DNA from: Paraspadella gotoi
Taxonomy: Eukaryota > Animalia > Chaetognatha
DNA: 64,000 nucleotides
Direction of reading: 5' to 3'
Assembly (NCBI GenBank): GCA_051294375.1
Contig: CM119271.1
Span: 4,969,579 to 5,033,578 of the forward strand
Positions 14,621-59,900 of this stretch are shown here, one piece after another. Position numbers and translations under genes: made by a program. The notes under the pieces are model-generated. The model was not told where the DNA came from. It saw nothing but the letters and a program-made list of their open reading frames with translations, and searched no databases. Each line of letters begins with the position of its first letter. The first letter of the stretch is position 1.

Positions 14621-17277
14621 TCAACACAGTTGGCAAGCCTTGTTGCAATGCGGCAGCATGTACCACGGATTATTTTCGCATTCACCCCTGTCGGCCCACT
14701 CTTGACATCTCTCGTGCTGGTCGCCGCAATTTTCGCAGTAGCCGCAAGCTTTGGGACAATTCGGGATCATGTAGTGACCGTTTTTCTTACATTCGCCGCG
14801 TTTGGCCCATTCGTCGCAACGATCCTTGTGATTCTGACAATTTTTCCCGGCGCCGTCTCCACCATCACCGCCGTCTCCACCATCACCACCGTCTCCTCCA
14901 TCACCACCGTCTCCACCATCACCGCCATCTCCTCCATCACCACCATCCCCGCCATCTCCTCCGTTGCCGCATCCTTTGGGTCCGCATCCGTTGCCGAAGT
15001 CGCCCGTGATCAACAGGTTGCCCAATGCCCTTCTGTTGCTGCTGCAGGTCGAAGATCGCATAGAGCTGCAAAGCAGTTGGATGGGTTAAGATTAATTTTC
15101 TGCTATTCCCTTTCTTTTATTTATTTTTTTAATTTTTCTATTTATTCATTTTAAAATTGAGTGAATTATTAATATTTTTTTTTCAATGATGAAAGCAACA
15201 ATGTGAAGGTTTATTTTGCGAAACTTGGAAATCGTTTACCTAGTGCAAGGCTTCTTGGGACAAGCAGTCGGACAAGTGCATTTACACTTGTGGTTCACGT
15301 AGCAAGGATCTTTGCACTTATCGTTCTTCTCGCAATGCGAGTTACAGTTGTACATAATGTTGACGATTTTCGCGTCCGTGAAATGGAGGGCGGGATTAGA
15401 CCGATGACCGATGCTGCCTTGGTAGTCCTTGTTGATAATACGGTAATAGATAAATAATTATTTGTAAACGATAAGCGTGTAATGGAATCGACATAGATTG
15501 AATATTTGACAATATAATATGACAATGAATATAAGCTACTACGGTGGACTAAAATCCACCAACCATTCATCAGTGGCCATTGGTGCAGGAGGCAAGTCAT
15601 TCGCTTCCCAACCCAAAGGTCCGGGGTTTTAGCCAGGTGGTCGCCTAGCAGTTAAGAGGGATGGGGCTCTTAACCCGCCTGTAACATGGTGTTACACTGT
15701 TACAGCCTTATCCGAAGCTCAGGGACTGCTTATATTGATCGGTTCTGTCACTAACACATAACAATAATTACTGTCTCTTCACTACTTATTTTTGCTTATT
15801 TAGGAATTCACTAATTTACAGTACAGCATTTTTGTTGCTCGTCCATTTAACAGATTTTAAAACTAAATCACACTAGCAACGACCTCACCCATTTACCTTT
15901 CTTAACTTAAGGTCTTTTCCTGACAACAACAACGACAACGTCACTCTTGCCTGATTTCTCGTGATGATTGTGAGGCGACCGTTTGACGAAAACGAGGAGC
16001 CTCCGTAGTGCATGACGGAGCAGTAGTCGTACGGAACGCCGAAGTTGTGCGTGCGGCTCTCGATGCGGAAGTTGTGCCGGTTGCTCCAGCTCACGTTGTC
16101 GAGAAGCACCTTGATGGCGGAGTCGCGGTCCGTGCGGCATTGCTCGTGGTGGAGACCTGGTTGAAATTTCTATCTGACGGAGAGAGTTCTTTAGTTAAAA
16201 AAAACTTAAATCAATATTGCAAAGAAACCGATAGACAGAAGAAAATTAAGAAAAAACAGTTAGATTTCGACGGAATGTCATTAAAATAAAATTTGAGGAG
16301 GTCGTAAAGAAGTAGAGAGCACTAATAGAGAATTGTCTTTAAAATTTTTTAATAAATTTTCAAATTATACATTAAATACGCCTTCTAATAATTTTGTAAT
16401 TGGTCCGAATGCAGTTAACGACTCTACCTATGGTGTGCCCCAATTCATGGGCGGCGATCCCGTGCCAAGTGCAGCCTCCAATCCGCAGCGACACCTCGTG
16501 GTTGCGATGCAGCCAACCGACCATCGAGTAGCAACCACCCTTGTTGACCACGGTGATGTAGTTGCTGTGACCGGTGGAGTGGGCCAAAGGGCTTCCGGCC
16601 GGCGTGAACCGGATGCACGTCTTTTCTTGCCACTCCTTGGGTTTAGGAATTGTTGATAATACTACATTTGAAATTAAAATTTAAATACTGCAAATTATTA
16701 ATAGTATTAATGAGCATTGAACAATACAAATTTACAGCTGCTAATTAATAATTATAAAAACGAGGTTAAAAATTTAATATATACCCCAATTTATTAATAA
16801 AAAAAGCCAATTTCTGTGGTGGATACGTAGTACATACTAAGGTAATATCTTGTAAGAGAGATAGTCTCCCTTATCAAAAAGTTAAGAGGCAGGATAGCTG
16901 GTTCATTAAATAAATTAATATGCTTTTAATAGGTTTGCATGGATCTCAAAACTTTAAACAATTCCGCTTGGATTAATAACAAAGAAGAGAATTTGCTAAA
17001 TTTTCACACCCCATCTGCCGAACCTTCATAGCGCTGTAGATGACCCCAGAGTATCGAGACCCGAAAGCGCTGGAGATCTTGTAGGGAATGATGGCCTTGG
17101 GCCAGCGCCAGTAGGGATCCTTCATTCCGGCGCCGGCGAAAGTAGAGAGGCTGACGTTGCTGTAGGCGACGGCGTATTGCAATGGATCAAGATTCATGTC
17201 CATCTGGAGGTTGATCAGGTTGTTCGAGGACGCAGAGGCGGCCGCACCTTTTTTTTTTTGAAGGGTCGGTTGGGGGA

Positions 17278-17359
<82 letters not shown>

Positions 17360-17603
17360 CGAATTGTATTGAGAAGCTTCGCACTGATTTGTGCCCCCCC
17401 CACTCCCCACTCCCCTCCATCCTCACCCTCCTCGTCCCCGCGTCTCGAATGATCTCGTCGATCGTCCGGTCGTCGTCCTCGTCGTCGACGACCGTTTCCA
17501 CGGCGTCGATGTCTTCGCTTTCGACGCCGGGCAGGAAGTCCTCGTCCGCGAACGACGTCGCGACGAAGACTCCTTCGAATTTGGAAAGAGGAAACTTGGT
17601 TCA

Positions 17604-28134: not shown

Positions 28135-31100
28135 TCGTCTCCGCCCCGTGAGGGTCGCGTTCATGTTCCCGGTTTTGGTTCTACGGGGCAAACAGTGTTT
28201 CTTCAAAGAACTCAGGGAGCTGGTTTAACAATGTTAAGTCTTAAAAATGTTTAAGCTTTCAAGCAGAAGTTTATCTTGTTTTTCTCGCAGAGCTGCGACA
28301 ATCGGCAGGAGTGATCGCTACGAGAATCAGAAGGGTTAAGTTATTTTTCGATCCGACCCAACGACATTTCCGTCTTTCCGCGATTACTTAATGCCTTGGG
28401 ATAATTTCTCGGCGCGATCCCTGAGTGTTCGTTGGAGTCACACGCGAACTTTCCATGACTTTTAGGCGAATTTCTTTTTCAAACGAAGGATTTGACGAGT
28501 GGACGGAATCTTGACGCGAATTTTTAATCGCGACTTGAAGGAATAAGTTGCGGGGAATTAGCAGAAGCCTTCAGGCGCTACGAGCCCGTTGCACATCGAG
28601 AGTACCTTTGTGAAAACGTCGAAACGTCTTGTCAATTCATATGGGGGATTTTTGAGAAATGGGAAAGATGTTTTATGCGGTTATGCACGTTCTGTTTTTT
28701 TTTTTTAAGAAAAGCGCAAATGGTGAGACTCTTTATCAATCAAAGGGCGCTTTGCAATATCTCGGTAAAAACTTCATTTTTGAACGTTTAAGTTTTGCCG
28801 TGCCCATTCACCTTGAAAGAGCTTTTTTTGAGGGCCTTCCCTTCTTACCCCCTACCCACGACGCCTTTATAACCCCGCGGACATTTTCGACAAAATCTCG
28901 GAAGCTAAGGCGAGGACTCTGGAGGACTCTCGCTCTTAATTCGGGCGCGCAATGAATGTTGACAAAAAGGCAGAGAGGAAAGCCGGCAGCGAGAGAGACG
29001 GAGAATTTCAGACTCGCGAATTTTAGTGAGATACAGGATAGACGACGTGCCGAGGGGATAGAGAGAGAGGAGAGACGAGAGAGAGAGAGATGAGAGCAGA
29101 GATCGATGTAGGAGAAGAGACGAGAGAGAGAGATAGTTATTCGCGACCGTAATCAGTCTTAATAAGGGTTACCCCATAATCTCCAGGGCTACTCTCCGTC
29201 AATCATCAAGCCGAGCGAGTCTACGCTGAAATCTCGATAAAAGGTACTATTAAATCTTTCTGCTTTTCTCTAATGGTAGCGAAAAACCCGATAAAATGGC
29301 GGGAAAGGGTCGATATGAGGGGTGGCAAAGGGGGTTGGATTTTGAGGTGAACTTAATAGAGAGAGATGGAGAGAGAGACGAGAGAGAGAGAGAGAGAGAG
29401 GGCGACTGGCTCGATATATTCAAATGTAGTTAATAGATAGATTTTTTTTTTCCTCTCGCTCTCTCCTCGGCCTCGACTTTGATTTACCTTGGAATTTTCT
29501 ATTTCTAAGAAAAGAGGATCCGATCGGACTGAATTAGCCAGGGGTGGTCGCGGAAGAATGCGCGACCATGGGGGGGGGGTATACAGCGGCTAATAAGAAA
29601 GGGAAGGGAGAGGACCGAGAAGAGAAAGGAAGAACGAGAGAAACTGAGGAGAGAGGAAGAAAATGTATCACTAGCATTTAGTGGCGTGGGTGAAATAGAA
29701 AGAGGGGGGGGAAAAGGGAGAAAAATAGGATATAAGACAGAAAAGTAAGTATGACCCGAAACCCCAAACCGACCCCCTGCGGCCATCTTTCGGACGACAA
29801 TCGACGGTCAAATTGTTTATGGACGAAGATCGGGGCAGATGATCGTCGACTCCCAAACGACGCAATTTCAACTGAGCACAATCCTTCGACCTGCAATTCT
29901 GCCTATTGCATAATATTCTCATTCAAATTTTCTATATTACAGCTTAATGACCGCCGTGAGGAGACGAGCAGACGATCTCGATAAGAGAGGTTTTATCTGT
30001 TCCGGCGAAACTCTTGCGAAAAGAAAAAATTAGGTTCTATCGTAAACACGCACGAAATTTTACCGCTCGCGCCGGGACAGGAAGAGAAAAAAAGAAGATT
30101 CGATAGAGGGATAAAAAAAAAAGCATCGAGGATTCAAATGGCAGCGTTTAGTTTAACATTTAAGGTATTTAAAGCAAGATTGTGATTTGATTTATAGTAC
30201 ACTAATATAACGATTTAATTTGATCGTTTTTATCCGTACCTTTTACTTCTCAACGAATTACAATAAACGAATCAAAAAGGACAGACCGGAGATTTTATCG
30301 ACGCTAACATATCTAACTAGAGTTCGAGCCGCAGCCATTGGCTAAAACGCTGCGAGATTTACGCGTCTTTGCGAGGCGGCGGCGGTCGGGCTGGCGGCCG
30401 GCGGCAGCGGCGGCGGCGGCGGCGTGCGCAGGGTCGGCGTCGAAGCGCCAATATTTTTCCTCAGACGCTGCGCTTCTCGATGAAGTCGAGACCGAAAAAG
30501 ATCGGACGTCCGCGTGGGGTAGAGTATCTTTTTTTAAAGGTAAGTATGAAGTAGGAAAATGCGGCTGAGGAGGCAGGAGAAGACAGGGGCGACGGAGGTT
30601 GCGGACAAATCAAGAAGAGGAAGCGCGGAGAGACGTGAGTGGAGGCGGGGAATTTAGAGAAAAGAGGAGGGCAGGAAAAAGTGGAGGAAAGGAGCGGAAT
30701 AAGGGAAGAAGAAATAAGAGAAAAGCAAGTAGGAGAAAAGGAGGAACAGAGGAGGAGAGAAGCGCGGGAAAAAAAATAATTGAAGGTAAGAGAGAAAGAA
30801 CCGGAAAATAAAAGGGGCATTTGAAGCTGAAGAAAAGAACATTCTGCGGAAAAAAAATAGTGGATGAAGAAGAAGAGATATTTAACCTTGGGGCGTAGCG
30901 GACTTTGGCGGAGGCAACAGAGAGGCGGGAAATAGAAAGAAAAAAAAAAGAAAAAAAAAAGAATGAGAAAATCACGAGATTTCGTGGAGAAGAAATTTAA
31001 TCTTTGAAGCTAGGATGTTTTTTGCTAAAACTCGAGAGAATCATCTCTTGTTCAGCGGGCGAGGCGAGATTAAAAAAAGAGGAGAGAGACGAGCGAGACG

Positions 31101-33636
31101 AGAAGAGAGAGAGAGAGAGAGAGAGAGTTAAACTTTACTTCTTATCAACACAGTAATGAGTTATGAAGTTTACTTCCACATGTCGTTTGTGACATTTCGT
31201 TACACTGCACGAAACCGTTACCTAAAATCTTTCCCGGAATTAACGACAATGGCGGTCTCCGAAGATGACCGAGGGACCAGTTCGCGCGTGTCGAATTTAA
31301 ACACAAAGACAAACGATCACGACATTTATGGAAATTAGTTGTCTAGGGAACTTTATTTCTCGGATCTTTCAACATAATTTGGCGAATCGTGAAATTATTC
31401 AACTCGGTTGTTCGACGCTAAGCAAGGGATATTTTTGCATTCAATCGACTGCTTCTTAATTAAAGTTATTTTCTTAGTGTACTAGTACTATTAGTTATCG
31501 TACTAATACTTCGAAACGAAAACGAGCGAGAAAGTGACGCGACTCATTTGCATAGAAAAAAAAAAATTAAAGTTAGGAGAAAAAAGTTAAGTATTTCCGG
31601 ATGGGGATGAGTAAAGAGAAGTATAACAAAAAAAAAAAGAAAAGAAAAAAGCAAAAAAAAACAATAAAAGCAGAATTTGTCTCGTTATCGCGCTCGCGTC
31701 TCGGGGTGTTCAGGCTGTCAGCTCTTGCTTCTCCATTTGATCTTTTTTTCTGTCAACTCGCTAGTCTATCTTTCACTAGATCCGTGTTCCGTTAGTCTGT
31801 TCTTCTACAAATGTCTGTCTACCCCATTTTACGTATTATCTTCCCGAATTTATGTTTTCTCGCATTTATCGTTTCCCGTTAGTCTTTCTTTGACTTGTGA
31901 TCTTCGAGGAATGTTCTGTCTTCTCTATTGTTCTAATCTTTTCCGTCTTCTGTTTGTTTGTTTCCCGGTTTGTATTTTTGATCCGCTCATATGTTTTCCG
32001 TTCATGATTCTGTCTTTTTCCGTTATCCTACGTATGCCTTGTTTATTATTCCCTTCTTTTCACGGACTATCTCGATGGAATTCAAATTTCCATCAACGAT
32101 CTAGTATGTCCGTCGTCCGTCATTTACGTTCTTCCCATTTTACTAGCCGACCGCTTGGTTCAATTTCCTATATATGTCCCGCATTTATCTGTCCGTCCGA
32201 AAAGTCCGTCTGGTCGTTTAATATTTTCACATTTTAAAGAAGTAAGTTTGTTTTAAACGTCGGGTCATGAAATGCTTTGTTTGTCTGCCATATTTCTGTC
32301 CGTCTGTATCTCTATTCTGTTGTCTTCCTGTCCGTGTTGTCTTGTTAAGTTTCTGTCACTAGCTCTTCGATGTCAGTCTTTTTGCGAGTCCGTTAAGTTT
32401 TAACTATTCTCACACCCGCGCATGTCGTGCGTCTGTTCGTCATCGTCGACTTCCTCTCCTCAACTTTTGGCGACTTCACTTCCGCAGGCGACGAAAGGCA
32501 TTTAGGTCCGTTAAGAAGCGCAATCAACTCCTCATTCAGCGCAAACGACAGACTTGCCAATTTAGGGGATGCCCGCGCGCGGTACACCGACAAGTTCGGG
32601 AAGATGCGAGTGGAAGATTGGAAGGAGGGAGGTTGGGCTTGTACGGTGGGAGGTGGCAGAGAGTAGTGGGAGAGAAGAGAGAGAGAGGAGAGACAGAGAG
32701 TGAAGAGAGCAGCTGAGAGAGGGCAGGGGAGGGAGAGATGAGATAGATAGGACAGAGATTGAAGGATTGGGGGGGGGGGGGGGTCGTGGGATGAATTAAA
32801 ACATAAATAAAACAGGGAGATGAATAATAATGTAATAATTGGATGGAAAATGAGGCAAAATATAGAAACATGAAAAAGAGCAAGAGATAGAAAATTAAGA
32901 AGGGGAAAAAAGAAATTACAAAAGCAAAAGGCAAAAATGAAAAAGGGGAAAAAAAAAGATCAGAATAAAAGAGAAAATAGGATTAGAGAAGAAAAGAAAA
33001 AAGGAAGCAGGCATCAATGAGAAAAAAAAAGACGTTGGGCGACCGACCGACCGATCGTTGCCCTTTTTTTTCCTCAACGAGGGTCGAGAGGCCAAATCGT
33101 GAACCTCGTTTGCGACCCAACGTGGGTCAGGGTCAGGGGGAGAGAGTAAGTAGGTGAGGTGAGGTGAGGTCATTAGGGGTGAGTGAGAAATAGGTCATCA
33201 TACGGAGGAGGTGGGGAGAGAGAGAAGAGAGAGAAAGAGGAATGGGGGAGAAAAAACAACTAACTAAGAACGGTGATTCCAAGTGTTGCGCCGAACTGGA
33301 CTTTATTTATGCGTAATTTCTCTCTAATCACATGATTATGACATGACATACATGAATGACTTAAAACTTTCTTAGCCGTGTATTTTGACATGCACTGAGT
33401 CGAAATTCCGTTTTATATTCCTTATATATTACATTTTTAATTTAACAGGACAGACCGATGGACAGACATACCGACCGACAGAGAGACCGACCGAAAAGTG
33501 ACTTATAGGTTTCTCCGCGAGCACTCGCGGCGCAACTAAAATGATGAAATTCGAATGGAGAAAAGTAAGTCGGGTAAGGAAGAAAGTGAGGGCCTTAGTT
33601 GTTTAGAAACATATTTTTCAACACTCGCAAAGGAAG

Positions 33637-33698
<62 letters not shown>

Positions 33699-34613
33699 AG
33701 CAAAGCGAAGGAACCTCACTTTTTTTCTTTTCTCAATTTCAGGATAGACGCCTCGTTTTTTTTGCAGGTGAGTCGATGAGAGACTTTTTTTTTCGTGAAA
33801 GGAGTGTGGAGTTAGTGTGGTGAGGGTTGTGGGCGGAATAGTGTAGCCGAGTGGTGAAGATGTGTGTTTTTGAGGAGGGGAAGAGGAGCGGGCCGGATGT
33901 GTGGGCGTCGAAGTCTTTCGACGGATGAGTCTTGATAAATCGAAAAGAAAAAAATAAAAATTCGAGAAAAAGAATAAACAAAGCGTCGACGAGGAAAAGA
34001 TGAAAGAAAAAAAAAGAAAGAAAGAAAGTAGCGTCGAAAAAAAAAAAAAAAAATGGAGCAGCAATAATGCGAGGGTGAACGCCGTAAAAAAGTGATAAAA
34101 AGCATCTATAAAGGGTTTGAAAGATAGACAGACAGAGCAGAATCAATGTTTTTTTGGATTGAAAGAAAATCATTATCATGTCACCTCCATTCGAATCGAA
34201 TATGATATAAATATATTTATATGTATATATGGATATTGTGTAATAAACAATAATATAAATGAATATAAAAAAGTTGTGTAAGTTTTTTANNNNNNNNNNN
34301 NNNNNNNNNNNNNNNNNNNNNNNNNNNNNNNNNNNNNNNNNNNNNNNNNNNNNNNNNNNNNNNNNNNNNNNNNNNNNNNNNNNNNNNNNTTAACATTTAA
34401 GGTATTTAAAGCAAGATTGTGATTTGCATTATATATACATAAATAACGATTTAATTTGATCGTTTTATCACCGGTACCTTTTACTTCTCAAACGAATAAA
34501 TAAACGGATCAAAAAGACAGACCGGCAGATTTATCGACGCTACACTATCTAATAGAGTTCGAGCCGCAGCCTTGGCTAAAAAAGCCTGCGGAGATTTACG
34601 CGTCTTTGCGAGC

Positions 34614-34655
<42 letters not shown>

Positions 34656-37600
34656 TCGAAGCGCCAATTATTTTCCCTCAGACGCTGCGGCTTCTCCGAT
34701 GAAGTCGATGACGCGAAAAAGATGGACGCCGCGTGGAGATGAGTATCTCTTTTTTTTAAAGGTAAGTATGAAGTAGGAAAATGGGTGAGGAGGCAGAGAA
34801 AGACAGGGGCGACGGAGGTTGGGAAAATCAAGAAGAGGAAGGCGGGAGAGTGAGTGGAGGCGGGGAGTTAGAGAAAAGAAGGAAGGGAGGAAAAAAGTGG
34901 AGGAAAGGAGCGGAATAAGGAGAAGAAATAAAAGAGAAAAGCAAAGTAGGAGAAAAGGGAGGAAAGAAGAGGAGAGAAGCCGGGGAAAAAAAAATTGAAG
35001 GAAGAGAGAAAGAACCGGAAAATAAAAGGGGGCGATTTGAAGCTGAAGAAAAGAGACATCTGGCGGGAAAAAAAATGTGGATGAAGAGAAGAGATAAGAG
35101 GGCGGACTTTGGGGAGGCAAAGGAGGCGGGAAAATAAGAAAGAAAAAAAAAAAGAGATCGAGAAAATTGGTTCGTGGAGAAGAAATTTAATCTTTGAAGC
35201 TAATCGGATGTTTTTGCTAAAACTCGAGAGAATCATCTCTTGTCGCGGCGAGGCGAGATTAAAAAGAGAGAGAGAGACCGAACGAGAGAGAGAGAAGAGG
35301 AGAAAAGAAGAGGAGTACAGCTTTACTTCTTATCAAACACAGTAAAATGAGTATGAAAAGTATTCAACACGTTATGACATTTCGTATACACTAGCACTTG
35401 AAAACGGCCGTTCGAAAAAAACGAAAAATGGCGGCCGTAAGATGACCGAAGGGGAGGTTCGCGCGGTGAATTGTAAACAAGAAGACAAACTTCACAGGAC
35501 ATTCATGGAAATAGTGTCTAGTGGAAATTTCTCGTGAACTTTCAAACATAATTGGGCGATCGTGAATATATAATGGATGTTCGACGCTAAGCAAGAATAT
35601 TTTTGCAATCAATCGACTGCTTCTTAATCTAAAAGTTATTGCTTAGTTGTACATTAAGTACATAGTACTCGTACTTAATACTGCGAAACGAAAACCGAAG
35701 CGTAAGAATAGTGGACGCGACTCATTTGCATAGAAAAAAAAGAAAAACGTTAGGAGAAAAAAGTAAGATTTCGTGCCGGATGCAGTAAAAGAGAAGAGTT
35801 AACAAAAAAAAAAGAATAAGAAAAAAGCAAAAAAAAAAAAGCAAAAAAAAAAGCTAGAATTTTGTCTCGTTATCGCGCTCAGCTCTCGGGCGTCGTCAGC
35901 CTGTCAGTCTGTGCTCTCTCCATTGACTTTTTTTCTGTCAACATCGACCTTGTCTATCTTTCACTAAGAAAGTCCGTGTTCCCGTTAGTCATTGTCTTCA
36001 AACAAATGTCTGTCTAACCCCATTTACTTATCTTCCCGATTTTGTTTTCGAATCGATTAGTCCGTTTTCCCCGTTAGTCTTTCTTTGACTTGTGATTCTT
36101 GCGAGGTTGCTCTGTCTTCTCTATTGTCTATCTTTCCGGATCTTACTGTTTGTTTGTTTTCCCGCCGTTGTATTTGATCCCGCTCATATGTTTCCGTATG
36201 TTCTGTCTTTCGCGTTCATCCTCACGTATGCCTTTGTTTATTATTCCCTTCTTTCAACGGACTACCGCATAGGAAACTTCAAATTTTCCAGTCACACGAT
36301 CTGTATGTCCGTCCGTCCGTCCTTTACGTTTCTTTCCGTTTACTACCGACCGCCTTGGTTTCAATTCCTTCTTACTGTCGCCGCAATTTTTTCTGTTCCG
36401 TCCCGAAAAGTCCGTTCTGTTCCGTTTAAATATTTTCACAATTAAAGAAGTAAGTTTGTTTAAACTCGTTTTGTTTGTCTGTTCATATTTCTTGTTCTNN
36501 NNNNNNNNNNNNNNNNNNNNNNNGTCCGTCTGTATCTCTATCTGTTTGTCTTCCTGTCCGTGTATCGGTTGTTTGTATAAGTTTCTGTCACTTGCTCTTC
36601 GATGTCAGTCTTTTTGCGAGTCCGTCAGTTTAACTATTCTCACACCCGCGCCTGTCGTGGTCTGTCCGTCCATCCGTCCGTCCATCCGTCCGCTTTCCTC
36701 TCCTCAACTTTGGCGACTTCATTCCGCGGCGACGAAAGGCATTTAGGTCCCGTTAGAGCGCAATCAATCCTCATTCCAGCGCAACGACAGACTTGCCAAT
36801 TTAGGGATGCCCGCGCGCGGACCCGAACAAGTCGGGAAGATGGGAGGGAAGATTGGAAGGGGGAGAGTTTGGGACTTGCACGTAGGAGGAGGGCAGAGAG
36901 AGAGGGAGAGAGAGAGAGAGAGAGGGAGAGAGAGAGAGAGAGGGAGGGAGGGAGAGAGAGTAGAATAGGAAGAGATTGAAAGTGAGTGGGATGAATTAAA
37001 AATAAATAAAAGGGAGATAAATAAAATGTAATAATGGTGGAAAATGAGGCAAAATATAGAAAACATGAAAAAGAGCAAGAGATAGAAAAAAAGAAGGGGA
37101 AAAAAGAAATGACAAAAAGCAAAAGGACAAAATGAAAAAGGGGGAAAAAAAGATCAGAATAAAAGAGAAAATAAGGATTAAGAGAAGAAAAGAAAAAAAG
37201 GTAAGCGGCATCAATGAGAAAAAAAAAGACGTTGGGCGACCGACAGACCGATCGTTGCCCTTTTTTTTCCTCCAACGAGGGTCGAGAGGCCAAATCGTGG
37301 ATCCTCGTTTGCGACCCAACGTGGGTCAGGGTCAGGGGGAGAGAGGTAAGGTAAGGTGAGGTGAGGTGAGGTCATTAGGGGTGAGTGAGAATAGGTCATC
37401 ATACGGAGGAGGTGGGAGAGAGAGAGAGAGAAAGAGGAATGAGGGAGAAAAAACAACTAACAAGAACGGTGATTCCAAAGTGTTGCGCCGCACTGACTTT
37501 ATTTTTATGCGTAATTCTCTCTAATCANNNNNNNNNNTCGTCTCCGCCCCGCGAGGGGTCGCGTCATGTTCGGTTCGGTCTACGGGGCAAAGTGTTGTCA

Positions 37601-40600
37601 AAAGACTCAGGAGTGGTTTAAAATGTTAAGTTTAAAAATGTTTTAGTCAAGCAGAAGTTCTTCTTGTTTTTTTCTCGCCAGAGCTGCGACAATCGGCAGG
37701 GTGAGTGCTTAGAAGAACAGAAAGGAAGTTATTTCGATCCGACCCAAGACATTCGTCTTCCGCGATTCTTAATGCTTGGCATAATTTCTCGGCGCGATCC
37801 CTGGTTGTTCGTTGGAGTCACACGCGAACTTTCCATGACTTTTAGCGAATTTCTTTTTTCAACGTTTGACGAGTGACGGAATCTTGACGCGAATTTTATC
37901 GCGACTTGAAGGGAATAAGTTGCGGGGATTAGCAGAAGCCTTCGGCGCTGACGAGGCCGTTGCACTCGAGAGGGACCTTTGTGAAACGTCGAAGCTCTTG
38001 TCAATTCTATGGGGGATTTTTGAGAAATGGGAAAGAGGTTTTATGCCGGTTATGCCAGTTTGTTTTTTTTTTTAAAGAAAAGCGCAAATGGTGAGACTCT
38101 ATATCAATCAAAAGGGCGCTTTGAATATCTCGGTAAAACTTATTTTTGAACGTTTAAGTTTGCCCGATGCCCATTCACTTGAAAGAGCTTTTTTTGAGGG
38201 CCTTACCCCTTTCTTACCCCTTACCCACGACGCCTTATTAACCCCCGCGGGACATTTTCGACAAAATCTCGGAAGCCTAAGGCGAGGACTCTGAGGACTC
38301 TCGCTCTTAATGGGCCGCGCATGAATGTGACAAAAGGGAGAGAAAGCCGGCGCGAGAGAGCGGAGATTTCAGANNNNNNNNNNNNNNNNNNNNNNNNNNN
38401 NNNNNNNNNNNNNNNNNNNNNNNNNNNNNNNNNNNNNNNNNNNNNNNNNNNNNNNNNNNNNNNNNNNNNNNNNNNNNNNGGGGTAACCCTTTAACGCGAA
38501 CTCTCTCGCTCTCTCTCTCTCTCTCTCTTTGCTCTCTCTCCTCTCTCGCCAGACTTCGGTTCACTGCTGGCAATCTCTCCGTAAAATTCTTCGCGAAGTC
38601 TGAAGAGTCGCGTTAAAGGGTTACCCCATAATCTCCAGGCTCTCTCCGCAATTCTCAGCGAGCGAGTCTACGCTGAAACTCGTAAAGGTTATTAATCTTN
38701 NNNNNNNNNNNNNNNNNNNNNNNNNNNNNNNNNNNNNNNNNNNNNNNNNNNNNNNNNNNNNNNNNNNNNNNNNNNNNNNNNNNNNNNNNNNNNNNNNNNN
38801 NNNNNNNNNNNNNNNNNNNNNNNNNNNNNNNNNNNNNNNNNNNNNNNNNNNNNNNNNNNNNNNNNNNNNNNNNNNNNNNNNNNNNNNNNNNNNNNNNNNN
38901 NNNNNNNNNNNNNNNNNNNNNNNNNNNNNNNNNNNNNNNNNNNNNNNNNNNNNNNNNNNNNNNNNNNNNNNNNNNNNNNNNNNNNNNNNNNNNNNNNNNN
39001 NNNNNNNNNNNNNNNNNNNAGATAGATTTTTTTTTCCTCTCGCTCTCCCTCGGCCTCGACTTTGATTTGACCTTGGAAATTTTCTATTTCTAAGAAAAGA
39101 GATCCGATCGGACTGAATTAGCCAGGGGTGGTCGGGAAGGGAATGGAGGAATGGGGGGGGGGTAACAGGGGTAATAAGAAGGAAGGGAGAGGACGAGAGA
39201 GAAAGGAAGGAACCGAGAGGGAAAAATGGAGGAAGAGAGGAGAAAATGTATCTAGCTTTAGTGGGGTGGGTGAAATAGAAAGAGGGGGGGAAAAAGGGAG
39301 AAAATAGGATATAAGACAGAAAAAGTAAGTATGACCCGAAACCCCCCAACCGACCCCCTGCGGCCATCTTGGACGAAATCGACGGTCAAATTGTTTATGG
39401 ACGAAGATCGGCGATGATCGTTCGACTCCCAAACGACGCAATTTCAAACTGAGCGACATCTCTCGACCGCAATTATGCTATGATAATATTCTCATTCAAA
39501 TTTTCTAATATTACAGCTTAAGACCGCCGTTGAGGGAGAGAGAGACGATCTCGGAGAAGAGAGGTTTTATCGTTCGGCGAAACTTTGCGGAAAAGAAAAA
39601 TTAGGTTCTATCGTAAACACGCAAAAGAGATGAGAAAATAGTTCGTGAGAGAAGAAATTTAATCTTTGAAAGCTATCGGATGTTTTGCTAAAACTCGCAG
39701 AGAATCATCTCTTGTCGCGGCGAGGCGAGGATTAAAAAGGAGAGAAGAGAGCCGAACGAGAGAGAGAGAAGAGGAAAGAAGAGAACAGACTTTACTCTCT
39801 TATCAAACACAGTAAATGAGTATGAAAAAGTTAATTGANNNNNNNNNNNNNNNNNNNNNNNNNNNNNNNNNNNNNNNNNNNNNNNNNNNNNNNNNNNNNN
39901 NNNNNNNNNNNNNNNNNNNNNNNNNNNNNNNNNNNNNNNNNNNNNNNNNNNNNNNNNNNNNNNNNNNNNNNNNNNNNNNNNNNNNNNNNNNNNNNNNNNN
40001 NNNNNNNNNNNNNNNNNNNNNNNNNNNNNNNNNNNNNNNNNNNNNNNNNNNNNNNNNNNNNNNNNNNNNNNNNNNNNNNNNNNNNNNNNNNNNNNNNNNN
40101 NNNNNNNNNNNNNNNNNNNNNNNNNNNNNNNNNNNNNNNNNNNNNNNNNNNNNNNNNNNNNNNNNNNNNNNNNNNNNNNNNNNNNNNNNNNNNNNNNNNN
40201 NNNNNNNNNNNNNNNNNNNNNNNNNNNNNNNNNNNNNNNNNNNNNNNNNNNNNNNNNNNNNNNNNNNNNNNNNNNNNNNNNNNNNNNNNNNNNNNNNNNN
40301 NNNNNNNNNNNNNNNNNNNNNNNNNNNNNNNNNNNNNNNNNNNNNNNNNNNNNNNNNNNNNNNNNNNNNNNNNNNNNNNNNNNNNNNNNNNNNNNNNNNN
40401 NNNNNNNNNNNNNNNNNNNNNNNNNNNNNNNNNNNNNNNNNNNNNNNNNNNNNNNNNNNNNNNNNNNNNNNNNNNNNNNNNNNNNNNNNNNNNNNNNNNN
40501 NNNNNNNNNNNNNNNNNNNNNNNNNNNNNNNNNNNNNNNNNNNNNNNNNNNNNNNNNNNNNNNNNNNNNNNNNNNNNNNNNNNNNNNNNNNNNNNNNNNN

Positions 40601-44790: not shown

Positions 44791-45449
44791 TGCTTCGGCA
44801 GAAAAATTATTATGAATAAAAACACAAGAATAGCTTTGTAGTTTTTGTTTCAACGTCATTTTAAAATGTTGTTTAATGTTAATATTTTCAAAATGAAGTA
44901 ATACAGTGCTGAAGACAAAACATTATGTTTAGTATTTATTATTTAACGTAGCGAAAGAGATGAAGCCGGTTCACAGAGATAATTATCCTAGAGCAGAAGA
45001 GATACAACCACTAAGGCGAATAGGGGGAGAGGAGAAAAAGGGAAAAACCAGAATTACGAACGCTAATCATTCAACCTGGTTTTTTTTTTATCGTTTTACA
45101 GGGGAGTACAACTACCGATAGAGAGAGAGGAAACCCAGAATTACGAAGCTAATCATCAACCTGTATTTCGTGGTGCTTTTCTTAATTAAAAATTAGGAAA
45201 AAATTTTATCGGTTTAACTTCATTAGGTCATGGGCTAGTGGGTGGCTCTCATCTCGTGCTCTCTATATATCTCTCTCTCTCTCTCTCTCTCTCTTCTCTT
45301 TTCTCTCTCTCTCTCTTTCTCTCTCTCTCCGTTCGCTTGTCAGACGGTCAAACGTTTACCGGGAATGGGCACGCAATATATATTAAACATTTTCGTTAAA
45401 TACTTTATATAATGGTGGGGAGAGNNNNNNNNNNNNNNNNNNNNNNNNN

Positions 45450-50900: not shown

Positions 50901-53900
50901 GTGGGGTGGCTTTCCCACTGATCCAGAGTGAAGTAAGTAGAAGATAGTCATCCCATTCAAGATATGTTTCAATTGTATGAAAAAGGACGCACTCCCTTAA
51001 GTATTAGAATCGGGGAATACTTATTGTAACTCCGCACTACGCATCAAAATAACAGAGGAGGTCTGACTATCTTTAAATGAAATTTGGTACAACCATAATT
51101 ATACACATTCATATCTCATTCAATTTCATATGTATAAATAAATATCTTGCCCCTTTGAGCTGTGTGACAGGCTGTTGGTGGATTTAAGACTCCAGATAAA
51201 TATCTCCTTAAACTTTAATTTGTAAATATTAATATAATATTCCCCCCTTGCCCACCCATGCATGGCTTTGCGGGCGTCAGCATAGAGCACGCTTGTCTCC
51301 CATTGGCCGAACATCCAGAAATACGAATCGAAATGATGTCAGCGAGACGATGACGTCATTCTTACGCCGTCGACGAATCCGAATATCATACTTCATGTTC
51401 GACGAGGTGTGACGTCGATCTACGCCCAGCGCCTCTTTCCAGGATCGTATCTGAAGAATGTGCGGACTGTGTCGACAAAAAGCTAGAGTGAACAAATCAA
51501 GGTCGCAACTTGTGGCGCTGTGACCTGAAACGGTAAGTGCGCTAGTCTCCTCGAAATATGTTTGCCACTGCCTTCACTAGGAGTTAGGTGTTAACGAGCA
51601 GGAAATGGAATGGGTAGGATATTCAGGGTAAGGATTAAAAAGGAGGACAATATGAAAACATTAATTTTAACGAAATTTACTAACAATGAACACGCCTACA
51701 GCTCTTGACTAACCGCACTCTACTCCTCCCCTCTATAAGGTCCAAACTTTTTGCCATCAGGCTTTGTTAAAAAGCGTGCGGGAGAATACTCGCAGGATTT
51801 TTCTTCGGTGAGCATTATGGTAGTGGTACCAGGTACAGAAAACCACCAATCAAAGCCTTATCTATCAACCCGGAACATAATGAAGTACTCAAACAATAAA
51901 GCTGCCTCGTCATAAACATTGGGGACTAAAATCCACAACCGTTCATCCAAGCGGACCCCTTAAGGTCTAGCACGGAGGCCTGAATGTGTTTTCATTTACG
52001 CCATTCAATAACACCAAAGGGATCCGCGGGTTCTCATGCCGGAGTGGAACACTGCCGGTTGGGCAGGTTTAATGTTTGGAGTAGGGGAACGCCCAGGTCG
52101 CTCCAGCAACTTCAGACGTTGGTTATCTCTCTTCGGTGTCCCGTTAACATAGCCTGAAATTCCGAGACGGCTCAAGGGACTTGGGACAAATGTATTATTT
52201 GATCTACGTTCTTGCGGTTCCCCTGTCACTCAGAGTCACATACACAATAAAAATCCTCCTTTTCGCCTCAACACCTTACACGTATACATTAAGTGACTGC
52301 ACGGCTTCTTCGGATGTCGGGCGGCGCGGCTCACTTTTCCATCGTGGGCCACTTTCTCTCACTTTCCTATCATGAAGCCCGACCAGCAAACTTCTCTACC
52401 AATTTACGATCACAAAATGTTGCTTCTCGCGTTCCTTTTCCACCACCCCCCCCCCACTATGAAAGCCATAGTAAGGTGGACAGCAGCAAATATTCAAATC
52501 ACCCGCATATGCCCGTCGGGCCCTACCCCTATCTTCCTCGTACCACTACAAGCCATGAAGCCATAGTAAGGTGGAGAACAGACACGCAAAATATGTTCAT
52601 ACTTATGCGCGAACTTACAGCTTAAGGCGGAATTCCCTTGACACACCTCAAGAGACATTTGGTGACCCTGTTAACCACGAGCACACTATGAAGCACTATA
52701 TGTAAGGTGGACAGCACGCACACATATTCTCAATGTACAGCACCTTGTCCAGGCTACCTCGTCACATAGAACAACTGACCGTTGTAACAAATCAATACTT
52801 ACGCTTCGGAGAGCGCGATAGTGTACCGATGCGTGGAGCAGGCAGGACAGATATTCGCTACTGTACTCCCACGTACCTCGCTACGCGCCCCTCTACTGTC
52901 GTGGATTGTAAGGCGTACCACGAGAGCTAAGTAGACAAGGCCGATAAGTAACGGGTGGAACAGCAGGAAAATTTCAGACAGCCCCCTGGCGCGGACCTAG
53001 GGTAGGAAAGGAACACCGTTTTGTCGTTTCCTAGCGAGACCACGTCTGTAGCGATCTTGATGATAGCGTTCGTACTGAGTATAAGGTTGCGACTTGAGAA
53101 ACGCAGAAAATTTATACCAGCCTCGCTCAAAACCTTAACAAGTGGTTGTTTTCTCTTCATCCAAGGCTTTGGTAGAAGTAAGTGCGATTGTATTATACCA
53201 CTACTTTTTTTAGTATTGGGTTTTTCTTGTAAACTAATAAGAAAAAAGCACATAACGTGACCCGTCATGAGTTAGTTGGGTTCGCAAGCTAGTCACAGAA
53301 AATTTCAAAATATCAAGCCTCAGAATCTTATGCGTTTGTATACACTCTTTTGTTTCTCTGTAACCACCTACTATTGTCTAGTTAGAACGCGACATTTAGG
53401 CGTAAGGGTGAAGGGAGCACGCGAGCAAGAATTCCGCGCTATTATTGTTTCTTTCTATATGCTATTTTATAATGGAGCTTAGAGATCCATACTGTCGTAC
53501 TAGCACACATAAGGCGTCTCACGCAACAGAGCGACTCGCACATAATGTTTGTTTTGAATTTTATCGTATTAGCAAAAGCTTTATCCTTGACATTGTGTTT
53601 TGAATGAGAAAGTATGTGCAGTATATCAGGCATCATTTTTGCTTTGAAGTATCATTCAATTCTAATTAAATGGTTTTAATGTTTGACTTGCATATCTAAT
53701 ATAAATATTTCATTCTCTATATGATGTAAGTTTCCAAAATATTTTTTTTATTTTTCATTTCTTAAGTAATATATAATGACACAAGTATGAACTACATAAT
53801 CCTTAGATATATTTATATAAATACTCAAAAAGGTTTTTATAATGGGCAAAATACAGTCAGAAGAATAATTTTTATTTACAAACGTGTAAAATTTATTAAG

Positions 53901-56900
53901 AAGGATAATTACAAAAAAAATATAAGACATGACGAATGAGAAAAGAAAATCAGTAAGCCAGGCGATTTTTATATTAACGTTTAACGAAATCAAAGATGAG
54001 ATGTAATTTCTCGTTACGAACCTAAACTAAGTAATAAATTGGTGTCTCGTACGTTCTGTTTTTTATTGATCATGGTCGATTTTCTAAAAAATGATTAGTA
54101 TTTCAAGGGAAACTGAACGACAGGGATTTATTTATTTAAAACTAGAAAAACGTAACAACATAAGGAGATATGTTTGTCTCTGATGGAAGAGCCCTTCTTT
54201 CAGCGCGAAAAAATATTGTTTTGTTTTAAAAAATAGTTTTTCATCAGAATTGCAAGAGAGAGAAGAGAAGAGAGAGAGAATGAGCAGAAGAGGGAAGTAG
54301 ATAATTTTCAACAAAGAATTTATTTCACTAAAATCTTTACTTATCTATCTCTCTGAATTAAACCTATATTGTCACTAAAATCTTACTTAATCTATCCCTC
54401 TGAATTAAACTTTATATTTCAAATTTCATTCATGTCAATTTTTCAAATTTCAAATATTAATTTATTGCAATGAGAACAGTAATTTATTGATAAGTGTTAG
54501 ACAGAACGTCAATATAAGCAGTCCTGAGCTTCGGATCAGGAGGTAACACCATGTTACAGCGGATTAAGCGCCCCGTCCCTCTTAACTGCAGACGACCACG
54601 GGCTAGAACCCCGGACCTTAGGGTTTGGGAGGCGAATGACTTGCCTCGGCACCAATGGCTGCTGATGAACGTTGGTGGTTTTTAGTCCACTATACAGATT
54701 TTGGTGTATTAGACAGTACAAATCAAGTTGTATTAATTTTTATCTTTTTGTACAATGTCCATAATGTAATTAAGTTTATTCCTCTCTCCTCTCTCTCTCT
54801 CTCTCTTCTCAACCTTCACCAAATTTCATTTTTTTCACGCACTTATTCTATCTAGATCAACTAAATCTTGTCCCTCTAACTGACCACTTATCTCTCTCAA
54901 TTCTTTTGTGGACAACTTTACCTTTTCTATCTCTCTCTCTCTCTCTTTCTTTAACTCACAAATTGTCCATTCATTTCACAACAGTCAAAAAGCGCTGATG
55001 GAACTCGAAAATCTTTGAGTCGAAACATGTCTGCAACCTTATATAATAATAAAATTGTTGTAACATCTCTCTATCGATATTGATATCGATATTGATTTCG
55101 GTGAGCTTCTTGTGAGTTAGTGTCCGACGTCGTCGGCGGCGGCGTCACGCATTTTTATAATAAACTACTACGCTTTATTAGTTTTGGCTGGACTTAACCG
55201 TTTTTTTTAAAATAAAACTATTATAATTACAATGAATGTTTATAGAAACTGTGCTATCATAGTAGCTTAAAATATTAGATATGGCTTCTCATCATGAAAT
55301 AGCTCTGAAATTTCATATTCTTTGGATTCAAGTATGTTTTTTGTTTGAAATTTCCACTTCATTATGATTTACACTGTGCAATATTGCAATTTAGATTATA
55401 GTACTGCATTATATATCCCAAATTAGTAATATAAATTGCATAATCTAATTTAATATTGCAGTAAGTCACATATTGAGATGAAATTCAAAAAATTTTAATC
55501 TATAATAAAAATGGAAATCAATGAAGCCTTATATTAATTTTAATACAATAACACAATAAATTTTTTTACAGCTATGATTGGAAAAAATTGTAAAACAATG
55601 TGTAAGCATTTTTTTTCCTTTACTTTTTATTTCTTTAATTAATATAAATTTTCTTCTTAATTTTTTGTAGATTGCTGCCTTTTTAAACCCTTTAAAAACA
55701 AGTTCAGCGCATCGCATGACTGATTACAGCGCGCTGCTTCCACGCATCTCTGTTCTGTTGTCTTTCTCATTTCTCTCTCTCTCTCTCTCTGTAGTCTCTT
55801 GCGAGATGTTTTTTTACAAATTTTGATTATTTTTTTCCTTTTAAAACTTTTAATTATCGCCATTTTTACCGCGATTTTTTTCTCAATGCAAAATCCCAAA
55901 TTTACATCCGAGATTTTCTTGTTTATGTCACTTTCTTTCTCTCTTCTCTTTCAATCTCTTCTCTTCTAGCTCTCGGTTCTCTCTCTTTCACTCATACACG
56001 CGATTTGGGCTTGTTTATATTTATGTATGATTGATTGGCATTGAGTCAATGAATGACTATCATCGCATTCAATGTAAGTGACTATACATCTTACATAAAA
56101 TGATTATCATCACATCAATGAATGACTATATTGCAATCCCCTTTTGGTTATATCACAATCAATCATTTTGGTACTGCATAAAGGATCGATTATTTGGTTA
56201 TCATCGCATCAATTATTGGTTATCATCGCATCAATATTCCGGCTTATCATCGCTCAATCCTGTTAGGTGTCATGCCGGCACCAATATTTGGTTATCTTGT
56301 GAAGAGGATGACTTCGATGTAAATCGTGCTATTTGATTAAGGTATTCCTTTTGTTCTCGCTCTCTCTCCTCCTCTCTCGTGTCTCTCTTTCTCGCTCTTA
56401 TGGAGAGCAACATTGAGTGCTTTTCTGCTCCAGAGTGCTTGATAGTTATCCGAAATCGGATTCTTACCGTCCGTGGCATGAGCTCTTCTCAATCTCTCGT
56501 TTTTTTTTTTTTTTTTCGAGATCTCTCTGCCTCAGATTCTCTCTCTTCTCGACTTCTCTCTTCTTTTCTCTCATGCTCGTCTTTCTTTTATTTTATTTTG
56601 TTCAAAGGTGTGCGTAGGCTGCTCTCTTATCTTTCTCCTATTGAGGCTGCGTCTCTTTCTGTCTCTCTCTCGGTCATCGCGATTTTCTCTCTCTCTTCTC
56701 TTCGTCTAGTCACGATCATCGCAATCGTATGACTTGATGTCTATTTACTCATTCGTCTTCATTCTCTAAACTGTATTTTTTATCTTTTTGGTTCAAGTGA
56801 TCTCTCTCTCTATTAAACGATCGCCTCCGCAAACTCAGTATATATATATAATCCGGATTACGAAACTAGAGATATTAGCTTGCAGTTCATTTCTAACAAA

Positions 56901-59900
56901 AACGGCAAAAAGAACCCGCACGTGGCTCGACAGCCACGCCTTGAATTGCCTCTTTGAAGTTAAATTTTGACTGATCCGCTAATATCCACACGACAACTTA
57001 AAGCATGAACTTAAGCGAAAAATTCTGGAGGCTCATTTCATTTCTAAATCATACTTTGCCCAACCTTAATGCCACTGGTATTGCAACTTTCATTCTACAA
57101 ATTAATAAAAGAATAATATGTCAACAGAAACTTTAGCGAAAGAGTGTTGATTGATTATTAATATTAGTTTTTTGAATAAAATTGATTATTTTCTTCGATG
57201 GTTATAATTGATTGTGTAACTCCAAACAAGTAAATCAAAAATTCAATTTATGCATCGCAAAGATGCAGTGAGAAATAAATAATTCCGTACTAAGGACAAA
57301 AAACGAAATAACGTTTAAGAATAGAGAATGGCATAGGAGTGTAAAGACAAGATATTTGTCAAAAAATCAATAGAATTGCTAAATCGTGAGTGGACATGTT
57401 TTTCCAACGGTGTGGATTGACTGTGCCCCCCGCCAATCCTTCGCTCGGCCAGCCCAAAAAGAGCGAAAAAGGTTTTCATCCGAGGTTTAAAGCCGAGATT
57501 TTCCGGGCAAGAATCGTTTAACGAGAGACGTAAAAACCCGGAAATCCCCGGCGCGACGCCGATTGCCGCCGGAAACGCCCGGTAAAAAAAAAAATGGCCG
57601 GAAATCGGTGGAGGCGCGGCCGCGAGGAGGATCGATTTCGTGACCGCGAGGGAGGGGGGGCGGGGGTGTAATACCGTGCGGGAAGTCAAATCAGTGGAGC
57701 GCCGAGTCAATTGGGGTTATCGCCGCGTGGCGTTGTGGGCTTTGCGGATATGATTTTTCTGTATCAGTTGGAAAAAAAAAAAACAAAAGAGAAAAAGAAA
57801 CGGGGGCAAAGGAGAAAATCTCGCGATCAAGCGAGGAAGCAATCAAGCAAGCGAGCAAGCAAGCGACCTGACGAGCTGCTTCCCGCACTGAAGACGCGCG
57901 GNNNNNNNNNNNNNNNNNNNNNNNNNCCCCTTCAAGGTAAACTTTTTGCATCAGTTTTTAAAAACGGCGGGAGAAATGAGATTTTTCTTTACATTCTGGA
58001 GGAAGTACGAACCCAATCACCTTCTATAGGACGAATGACTCAACAAAAAAGCGCCTCATATGGTGGACTAAATCCCCAACCGTTCATCAGCGGCCATTGG
58101 TGCAGGAGGCAAGTCATTCGCCTTCCAACCAAAGGTCCGGGTTCTATGCCGGTGGTCGCCTTGCAGTTAAGGAGGGACGGGTCGCTCAACCCGCCTGTAA
58201 CCCGGCGTTACAGCCTGATCCGAAGCTCAGGGACTGCTTATATTGACCGGTTCTGTCACTAACTCATAACAATTAATACCGTCTCTTCACTCACTTCATT
58301 AAGGACCCGCCCCGCCCCTTCTCCCTTTTTCACCCAACTTCCTCTCCCAATGAACGCTTTCGATCAAACCCCCCCGTCTTTCCCCCCCCCCGCCAATCCT
58401 TCGCTCGGCCAGCCCAAAAAGAGCGAAAAAGGTTTTCATCCGAGGTTAAAGCCGAGATTTTCCGGGCAAGAATCGTTTTACGAGAGACGTAAAAACCCGG
58501 AAATCCCCGGCGCGACGCCGATTGCCGCCGGAAACGCCCGGTAAAAAAAAAAATGGCCGGAAATCGGTGGAGGGCGGGCGCGAGGAGGATCGATTTCGTG
58601 ACCGCGAGGGAGGGGGGGCGGGGGGTGTAATACCGTGCGGGAAGTCAAATCAGTGGAGCGCCGAGTCAATTGGGGTTATCGCCGCGTGGCGTTGTGGGCT
58701 TTTGCGGATATGATTTTCTCGTATCAGTTGGAAAAAAAAAAACAAAAGAGAAAAAGAAACGGGGGCAAAGGAGAAAATCTCGCGATCAAGCGAGGAACAA
58801 TCAAGCAAGCGAGCAAGCAAGCGACCTTGACGAGCTGCTTCCCGCACTGAAGACGCGCGGCCTCGAGTTGTTCGAGCGACCACTGAGGGTCGTTGTTGTC
58901 GTCGTCCTTGAAAAATATCTCGAGCTTGGGAGGAGCGAACGTGTAACCTTCGGGCACGCCGGGGTTGCGCTGGAAACGGGATTGTTAAAAATACAATGTA
59001 AGTAATGTGAGAAATTTAAATGGTATGGCGACGGAGGTTTTCTTTTTTTTTTTGTCATACGTGCAATTATTTTATATTTTTAAATTTATTGCTTCAAAAA
59101 ATCTGAAACGGGAGTAAAACCGAAAATTTTCCCTTTCATTTTACTCATTTTCTCAACGTCCTGTCGATAAAAGGGCAAAAACGTTTATCCAAGCCAACTT
59201 TACTTGAGAAAGATCCGGTTGCCAAGCGAGCGTCAGCCCATTCGATGGAATCATGGAACATTTCTGGCCACGAAGGAAGTTGAATCATAACGAGAGATGA
59301 AATGTGTCGAAATGCCTGACAATCTGATTGAAAGAAACCGGATAAGGGGAGAGAGGAAACGTCGATGTTATAATTATGTTTTTTATTTAATTTAAACTTA
59401 AAAATAAAGTTTTTTTCCCAATTTTTTTTTTTTTTGAAAGCATTAAATTATTGAAATGTTTTATTACAAACGATTATTATTTCGAATATTATATTTCAAT
59501 TTATATAACACGACTTTTACTTCACCGGATTACTAAAGTTCAAGTGTGGCGTATATTTCACACCCGCCTCACCTCCACCATCCGTCAAGCCAAATCCATT
59601 GGTCAGAGGGGGAACACACCATCAGGCGTAGTGTTCCATCCACAGTCCTAACGACTTCTCCTCTGCGCTGTTGGCAAAGCGCGAGACCGTCCTAGGGGTA
59701 ACCGCGCCATGACCTGGAGGCTGTCACTGAGTGTCGGAAAGCCCCCAAAGCCAACAGTGAGATCCCCCATCCAATGGGCATCACAGGCAACTCCCCACGG
59801 GCTGTTGCCATAAGTGGTGAGCCCCTACTATCGAACACGCACCTTCTCAGGGTTACGCTCTACGACAAACGCCTATGCCCTGCCGATCTTCGGGTTACGC

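Follow-up and report, generated by a model that had tools for sequence, protein, structure and literature searches.

What kind of mobile element would carry both a tRNA-like sequence and a predicted self-cleaving ribozyme within a single short repeat? The question is raised by a non-coding repeat of about 235 bases found in three copies in a 64-kb stretch of the genome of the chaetognath Paraspadella gotoi (contig CM119271.1; the whole 64,000-nucleotide stretch is called the window below). A preliminary description of this DNA had proposed a short interspersed element (SINE) or a tandem retrozyme similar to schistosome Sm-alpha, mobilised by an RTE, Penelope or other long interspersed element (LINE) partner. 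Our analysis retains the non-coding mobile family, the tRNA-derived and probably RNA polymerase III (Pol III) promoter, the twister fold and a plausible retrozyme-like cycle, and departs from the SINE or Sm-alpha-like reading and its partners. We give about an even chance to the explanation that the repeat is the solo long terminal repeat (LTR) of a miniature non-coding LTR retrotransposon, a Helenus-like terminal-repeat retrotransposon in miniature (TRIM), with a tRNA-like Pol III promoter and a predicted twister ribozyme cutting once per LTR. What is observed is that the ends are fixed and read TA...CA, that there are 4-bp duplications and a palindromic, AT-rich target bias, that the copy number is very high, and that tRNA-like stems and a twister core are intact across the family. 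Published work is cited here from the parts of each text available to us.

The ends of the element were defined from the copies and from public contigs. BLAST of positions 15400-15900 against the window confirmed three copies with common ends, at 15540-15781 (+), 58059-58289 (+) and 54471-54694 (-), the second and third being 85% and 84% identical to the first. The locus of copy 2 has a noisy duplicate, to which a further plus-strand seed at 51923 belongs; the left flank of this duplicate can be aligned to that of copy 2 with a score of 88.5 (null 95th percentile 42), and the right flank only weakly (46 versus 42.5). Its removal leaves three independent copies in 64 kb. The public contigs of eight of the nine listed runs (X3 left out) were aligned on copy 1; these runs represent one species and three studies and are not eight independent tests. 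In all eight, loose contig ends accumulate before 15543 and after 15781, each pile comprising 16-196 contigs. Agreement among the piled flanks is only 0.41-0.48, and the flanks are therefore diverse. The left consensuses end in TAT in 8/8 runs, as do copies 2 and 3 (TAC in copy 1), which places the left end at 15540. The element thus runs from 15540 to 15781, and not from 15543 to 15783 as first described.

The family is abundant, as had been suspected. The summed contig depth over the element is 0.4-2.1 million in run X1, where the flanks have ~90-100, and 0.06-0.68 million in run X5, where the flanks have ~20. Element depth is thus ~10^4 times flank depth in the public contigs, although summed depth is inflated by overlapping short contigs and is not a copy number. 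Combined with the density in the window, it suggests a family of thousands to about 10^4 copies.

The fixed ends, the terminal CA and the 4-bp duplication are marks of an LTR integrase. Among the checks proposed in the preliminary description, the one for target duplications gave an exact 4-bp match in two of the three copies, CTAC on both sides of copy 1 and CTCA on both sides of copy 2, each with a chance probability of 0.0056, and none in copy 3. The one for tandem arrays gave no head-to-tail units within the 64-kb window, where all three copies are single. The four letters outside the left end read A-x-x-T in 8/8 run consensuses (ATAT in three), and those outside the right end read ATAT in 5/8. 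Several gypsy clades (PMC3276498) and an ant TRIM (PMC3532108) insert at ATAT, a weak motif that spans their 4-bp duplication. Loci are shared among the runs, and consensus letters tend to be A or T in an AT-rich genome; these flanks therefore lend only modest support to an ATAT-like target bias. We also considered an IS200/IS605-like element with TAT as its target; it was rejected, as it leaves both 4-bp matches to chance.

These ends are difficult to reconcile with a SINE or a tandem non-LTR retrozyme, Sm-alpha-like or Penelope-dependent, that moves by target-primed reverse transcription, which is the model originally put forward. Both ends are fixed, and they coincide neither with the 5' end of the tRNA-like part nor with the predicted cut. 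The tRNA-like part had been described as the 5' head of the element, yet 33 fixed nucleotides precede it. Pol III transcription from the tRNA head would miss this leader, so that only an LTR-type strand transfer or a circle could restore it. Target-primed copying of a cleaved monomer likewise does not explain the ends, because the DNA ends match neither the Pol III start nor the cut. The right end is sharp at 15781, and no simple-repeat, poly(A) or tandem-repeat tail is present in the element. Together with the TA...CA termini, the short duplications, which are larger in animal retrozymes (PMC4918200, PMC7229834), and the lack of tandem copies in the window, these features make this model rather unlikely. 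It would account for the size, the copy number, the tRNA-like promoter and the single dispersed copies. It is also consistent with the linker of the ribozyme, which resembles the minimal hammerheads that cleave as dimers in Penelope elements and amphibian retrozymes (PMC6765202, PMC7229834), and with the dominance of monomers that is possible in some retrozyme families (bioRxiv 10.64898/2026.07.22.740005).

Fixed ends and single copies would also be expected of a non-autonomous DNA transposon, either a miniature inverted-repeat transposable element with a 4-bp duplication or an element related to Helentrons and Helentron-associated interspersed elements, in which the RNA motifs would be passengers. 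The subterminal inverted repeats (15561-69/15736-44) and the terminal hairpin fit such an element. However, it has no terminal inverted repeat, with only 5-6 of 20 positions identical between the element ends, and nothing in a DNA transposon gives a reason to keep tRNA and ribozyme stems. Helentrons are not known to make a target duplication and insert in T runs, and the insertion sites of copies 1 and 2 do not follow this pattern. We consider a DNA transposon the least probable of the explanations discussed here.

The tRNA-like segment probably serves as an internal Pol III promoter, judging from its sequence. The acceptor stem pairs 7/7 (15573-79 with 15638-44), as the preliminary description had recognised, and the D arm 4/4 including two G-U pairs. 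The T arm pairs 5/5 in the family majority, its loop being displaced by one base; in the anticodon arm 3/5 pairs form. The segment starts 33 nt inside the element and ends 3 nt before the first twister helix at 15648, a spacing that had been noted correctly. The A and B boxes are recognisable yet degenerate, and in the A-box and tail sequences quoted earlier the letters at 15587 and 15739, respectively, are minority alleles. A tRNA-Gly ancestry is not established. The triplet CCC occupies the anticodon position in an arm that pairs only 3/5; ARAGORN found no tRNA in the element at default settings, and at a relaxed score it called only copy 2 as Gly(TCC), copy 3 being called Val at a lower score. 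Rfam gave no tRNA match in the window or its sub-regions. A T4 run in the B box is private to copy 1 and absent from copy 2 and the family majority. The subfamily variants at 15641 and 15644 in the acceptor stem (about 18-46% of depth) both keep pairing, a hint that this stem matters as RNA, beyond its role in a promoter.

The module that follows is very likely of twister origin, as judged from its modelled fold in the P5 permutation. The L4 loop fits U-N-N-N-A-A-G-C and is closed by P4, which pairs 5/5 in the family majority and copy 2 and 4/5 in copy 1. Both pseudoknots are complete (T1 with 3/3 pairs plus the A-A contact, T2 with 2/2, GC/GC), and the catalytic residues are present: the general-base G15660, and A15672 and A15673 at positions +1 and +2 of the predicted cut. 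The T1 pair beside the A-A contact is G-C here and C-G in schistosome examples, a two-sided change (PMC8501958, Table 1). A relaxed twister descriptor, composed with the element already in view, matches copies 1 and 2 and not the deletion-rich copy 3. It matches 0/300 shuffled windows and 0/20,000 shuffles of each copy, in agreement with the twister named in the preliminary description. Pattern scans of metagenome contigs gave no match. In viral contigs the strict pattern gave none, and a looser motif-only pattern gave 11, none of which forms P4; therefore no relatives were found elsewhere in the scanned sets. Hepatitis delta virus (HDV)-like, pistol, twister-sister and P1-type twister parses, tried by eye, left no room for the required strands, and Rfam gave no hammerhead match in the window or sub-regions. 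The P3 arms TGTAAC/GTTACA (15679-15705) are also words that start and end many Helenus LTRs (PMC10886601, supplement). This likeness may be due to chance; schistosome twisters have a similar P3 start.

The P1 helix is absent from the predicted ribozyme. The linker in its place forms no hairpin as a monomer (0 kcal/mol) and a 6-bp self-duplex as a dimer (-8.3 kcal/mol). Minimal hammerheads with a similar design, one pair plus a palindrome, cleave as dimers in Penelope elements and amphibian retrozymes (PMC6765202, PMC7229834). Gating of cleavage through dimerization of the palindromic linker is a hypothesis here, because P1 is dispensable in twisters (PMC5408937). Large-scale tests are reported to have found that flaws in P1, P2 and P4 are tolerated, unlike changes in the pseudoknots or catalytic residues (PMC11662667). 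We consider it probable that the intact copies are catalytically active.

Variation within the family provides further insight into the element. Copy 1 differs from the family majority at ten places, and four of the differences break pairs (15565, 15635, 15709 and 15739); copy 1 is therefore a decayed copy of an intact family. The long-range stem around the tRNA-like part and the twister, for instance, pairs 9/9 in the majority and 7/9 in copy 1. None of the seven common non-CpG variants affects a pair or the core (P 0.02 when compared with all changes, 0.13 with transitions). This count excludes a CpG-type change in T1, at 15714, which reaches 2-13% of depth. Among the variants listed, none reaches 1% at G15660, A15672 or A15673. 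The folding stability of the whole element is unremarkable (z -0.40 and -1.03).

A number of observations weigh against a solo LTR with a working twister. No two-LTR copy, primer-binding site or polypurine tract was seen, and 3/3 copies in the window are single. The 115 open reading frames of the window contain no reverse transcriptase, integrase or any other transposable-element domain in Pfam. One of the eight run consensuses (X5) has a primer-like TGG after the right end, which the seven others do not repeat; among 30 of the 106 joints listed in the public contigs, there is no back-joint. No motif match was found between the element and the published Helenus consensuses. Copy 3, which is rich in deletions, has no exact duplication (TCTG versus TTGC). 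The shared species and loci of the eight runs and the AT-rich genome belong here too. On the side of the ribozyme, Rfam twister models miss the element in the window and in three sub-regions, one of them the 83-nt ribozyme alone. P2 consists of three pairs around a bulged A and not of four Watson-Crick pairs; according to a suggestion cited in PMC5408937, the active site may be perturbed when P2 changes in length. The catalytic G is trapped in a slipped P2 register, which is more stable by 2.3 kcal/mol. For copy 2, the lowest-energy fold without pseudoknots is a rod of -28.5, compared with -17.3 for the twister scaffold.

The latter points raise the possibility that the repeat is such a solo LTR in which an inactive twister persists as a relic, a captured SINE or RTE 5' end being one conceivable source, with ordinary linear LTR replication. 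The weak P2, the missing P1, the competing fold, the slipped register and the lack of an Rfam match would all be expected of a relic. The family is young, so that intact motifs need not mean selection. Kojima proposed the insertion of a SINE into an LTR as the origin of such TRIMs (PMC10886601), and schistosome RTE elements carry twisters at their 5' ends (PMC8501958). On the other hand, all catalytic and pseudoknot bases are present with a two-sided change in T1, the common variants avoid the core, and about 94% of the natural twisters tested were active despite flaws (PMC11662667). We consider a relic unlikely.

Taken together, Helenus TRIMs and plant retrozymes make the simplest reading a solo LTR from a Helenus-like TRIM whose replication resembles that of a retrozyme and employs a twister. 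If the repeat is a solo LTR with an active twister, a replication cycle can be proposed. A parent with two LTRs, a primer site and a polypurine tract would exist. Pol III would start at the tRNA-like segment of the 5' LTR, and the family majority has no T4 stop. Cuts corresponding to 15671/15672 in both LTRs would release a unit-length RNA. P5, P2 and the 9-bp long stem could keep the ends of this RNA together, and a tRNA ligase would join them. The RNA circle would be copied by a gypsy-type reverse transcriptase, with the leader and the promoter rebuilt, and the gypsy integrase would insert the complementary DNA (cDNA). Recombination between LTRs, or short cDNAs, would leave the solo LTRs that are observed. 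The palindromic linker may allow two LTR ribozymes to complete each other's P1, and such sharing could restrain the cutting of solo copies inside host transcripts. The arms of the long stem, one upstream of the promoter and the other downstream of the cut, would be present in the same molecule only if transcription reads through or covers two LTRs. The complete scheme, an animal Pol III-driven LTR retrozyme in which a twister gated by dimerization through a palindromic P1 linker yields a circular RNA for gypsy to copy and integrate, possibly with a single 234-nt unit as the whole replicon, is tentative, and we hold it as a minority view.

The last variant can also be considered separately: there would be no internal region, and the 234-nt unit would itself be the replicon. 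Its RNA circle would come from rare head-to-tail arrays, and a borrowed integrase recognising the CA-TA-TG junction would insert the units singly. Only single units have been seen, and 7/8 run flank consensuses have no primer site. The joined ends would form a palindromic 6-mer like the junction of an LTR-LTR circle, and the long stem and P5 would close the unit into a compact RNA. However, the joints listed include no back-joint, such a unit has no known priming site, and the preservation of TA at one end only would have no explanation. As expected of an internal region, two contigs extend more than 1.1 kb beyond the right end with 6 to 20 times the depth of single-copy contigs. A single-unit replicon is thus quite unlikely.

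These two contigs (1362 and 1262 nt, with 15637-15781 aligned) have depths of 83 and 296, ~6 and ~20 times the roughly 12-25 of single-copy contigs. They could represent either an internal region or an insertion in another repeat. In five of the eight runs, one contig joins the tail 15733-15781 to a different upstream sequence that contains a T4 run and a B-box-like motif but lacks a twister. This upstream sequence is absent from the window; it possibly belongs to a sister family or a helper with a common right end. Run X9, presumed to be RNA, has coverage over the astacin exons and the element and none over the intron flanks; such coverage can reveal neither a start nor a cut nor a circle, and it was not used as evidence.

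Table 1. Coordinates of the repeat copies and of the features of copy 1 in the window
Feature	Position	Strand	Remarks
Copy 1, solo-LTR-like, TA...CA ends	15540..15781	+	In intron of opposite-strand astacin-ShK gene; defined by BLAST, contig ends and flanks
Left target-site duplication of copy 1	15536..15539	+	4 bp, CTAC
Right target-site duplication of copy 1	15782..15785	+	4 bp, CTAC
Fixed 33-nt leader before tRNA-like part, putatively U3-like	15540..15572	+	5-bp hairpin at 15543-15560
5' arm of 9-bp long-range stem around tRNA-like part and twister	15561..15569	+	Partner 15736-15744
tRNA-like segment	15573..15645	+	A-box-like 15581-15592, B-box-like 15625-15631
Predicted twister, P5 permutation	15648..15729	+	Layout compared with Table 1 of PMC8501958
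Twister P5	15648-52/15725-29
Twister P2	15674-76 with 15656-59		One bulged A
Twister general base	G15660
Twister T1 pseudoknot	15662-64/15712-14
6-nt linker replacing P1	15665..15670	+	One G-U pair plus palindromic tetraloop in copy 3 and family majority
Predicted cut	15671/15672		U/A step
Twister T2 pseudoknot	15677-78/15717-18
Twister P3	15679-15705
8-nt duplication in P3 loop	15690..15697	+	Private to copy 1
Twister P4	15706-10/15719-23
Twister L4	15711-18
3' tail, putatively U5-like	15730..15781	+	Carries 3' arm of long stem; terminal CA; without poly(A) or tandem repeat
Copy 2	58059..58289	+	Intact T1, T2, P3, P4 and P5; C at cut position -1
4-bp duplication of copy 2	58055-58058 and 58290-58293		CTCA
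Copy 3	54471..54694	-	Many single-base deletions; flanking 4-mers TCTG/TTGC
Insertion-rich noisy duplicate of copy 2 locus	51920..52261	+	Likely assembly artefact; not an independent insertion

The window holds intron-containing tankyrase, JmjC, astacin-ShK and PAICS genes. One exon shows 57-73% identity across arthropods, molluscs and vertebrates. The astacin metalloprotease gene (14621-17422, minus strand), with copy 1 in one intron, has a cysteine-rich exon, ShK-like domains and a linker of Gly-Asp-Gly repeats. Near copy 2, a 97.5% direct repeat (57426-57901/58386-58860) surrounds an N gap at 57902-57926, and inverted duplicates at 48765-50074 and 58861-60978 span PAICS exons. With its noisy duplicate, its direct repeat at the gap and its inverted duplicates, the region around copy 2 looks mis-assembled or patched with raw long reads. 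Positions 28135-44800 contain several diverged (77-93%) direct and inverted copies of a ~4.2-kb non-coding unit, whose scanned open reading frames have no Pfam domain.

Each part of this element is known; the combination of a twister, a tRNA-like promoter and LTR marks appears to be new. A literature search, with most subscription journals outside its scope, found no twister in an LTR, a TRIM or a tRNA-promoter repeat, and the accessible text of a 2026 preprint on animal retrozymes mentions neither 'twister' nor 'tRNA' (bioRxiv 10.64898/2026.07.22.740005). Twisters are common in eukaryote genomes with almost no assigned role, and the one link that we found is to a non-LTR element. Most descriptions of LTR retrozymes concern plants and hammerheads, and the tRNA-promoter TRIMs described have no ribozymes. 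If our reading is correct, the element would be the first animal, twister-based counterpart of plant retrozymes. Under the tentative complete scheme above, no twister had previously been known in an LTR element, no ribozyme in TRIMp3 and no natural twister with dimer gating. The cut-and-circularise shortcut would then have arisen again with a different ribozyme, promoter and an animal host. There are also practical consequences. Some repeats classified as SINEs that have a tRNA head may instead be solo LTRs, and permuted twisters whose P1 is minimal escape the Rfam models. The element is short and abundant, so that cleavage, dimer dependence and circular RNA can be tested cheaply.

The element can be compared with several known systems. 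Twisters of the Perere-3 RTE 5' end also lie in an animal retroelement and have a similar P3 start and L4, but they are P1-type variants that cut at the end of an autonomous non-LTR element, whereas the one described here is P5-type and internal, with the T1 pair swapped (Liu et al., 2021, PMC8501958). Theta ribozymes likewise adjoin tRNAs as small ribozymes; they are HDV-like, belong to phages and stand beside real tRNA genes, not in a mobile repeat (PMC10879173). Sm-alpha and the animal non-LTR retrozymes share with our element a short repeat with a ribozyme, in Sm-alpha also a tRNA-type Pol III promoter, and a short palindromic helix that possibly needs a dimer (PMC6765202, PMC7229834). Unlike our element, they are tandem and hammerhead-based, with larger duplications and no LTR marks (PMC6765202, PMC7229834, bioRxiv 10.64898/2026.07.22.740005).

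Further parallels are found among LTR elements. Plant LTR retrozymes have one ribozyme per LTR, a cleaved RNA that is circularised, a gypsy helper and solo-LTR cDNAs (Cervera et al., 2016, PMC4918200). Like them, the chaetognath element is probably a non-coding LTR element with a predicted ribozyme in the LTR, 4-bp duplications and solo LTRs, for which a circular RNA and a gypsy helper are proposed. Theirs is a type III hammerhead in LTRs of 300-400 bp, their circular RNA has been demonstrated, and the accessible text mentions no tRNA-like promoter (PMC4918200). Helenus (TRIMp3; Kojima, 2024, PMC10886601) has a tRNA-like sequence inside its LTR and 4-bp duplications in animals, and can survive mostly as solo LTRs; at least three Helenus LTRs in the supplement start with TA and not TG. 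In both Helenus and, on our reading, the chaetognath element, a tRNA-like sequence with A and B boxes and of unclear isotype lies in a short LTR behind a fixed leader, between TG or TA...CA ends, with 4-bp duplications (in the animal families) and solo LTRs (PMC10886601). Our element is known without a two-LTR copy, primer site or polypurine tract, and a twister, which the accessible text on Helenus does not mention, follows the tRNA-like part where the Helenus LTRs examined in the supplement mostly show a T run (PMC10886601).

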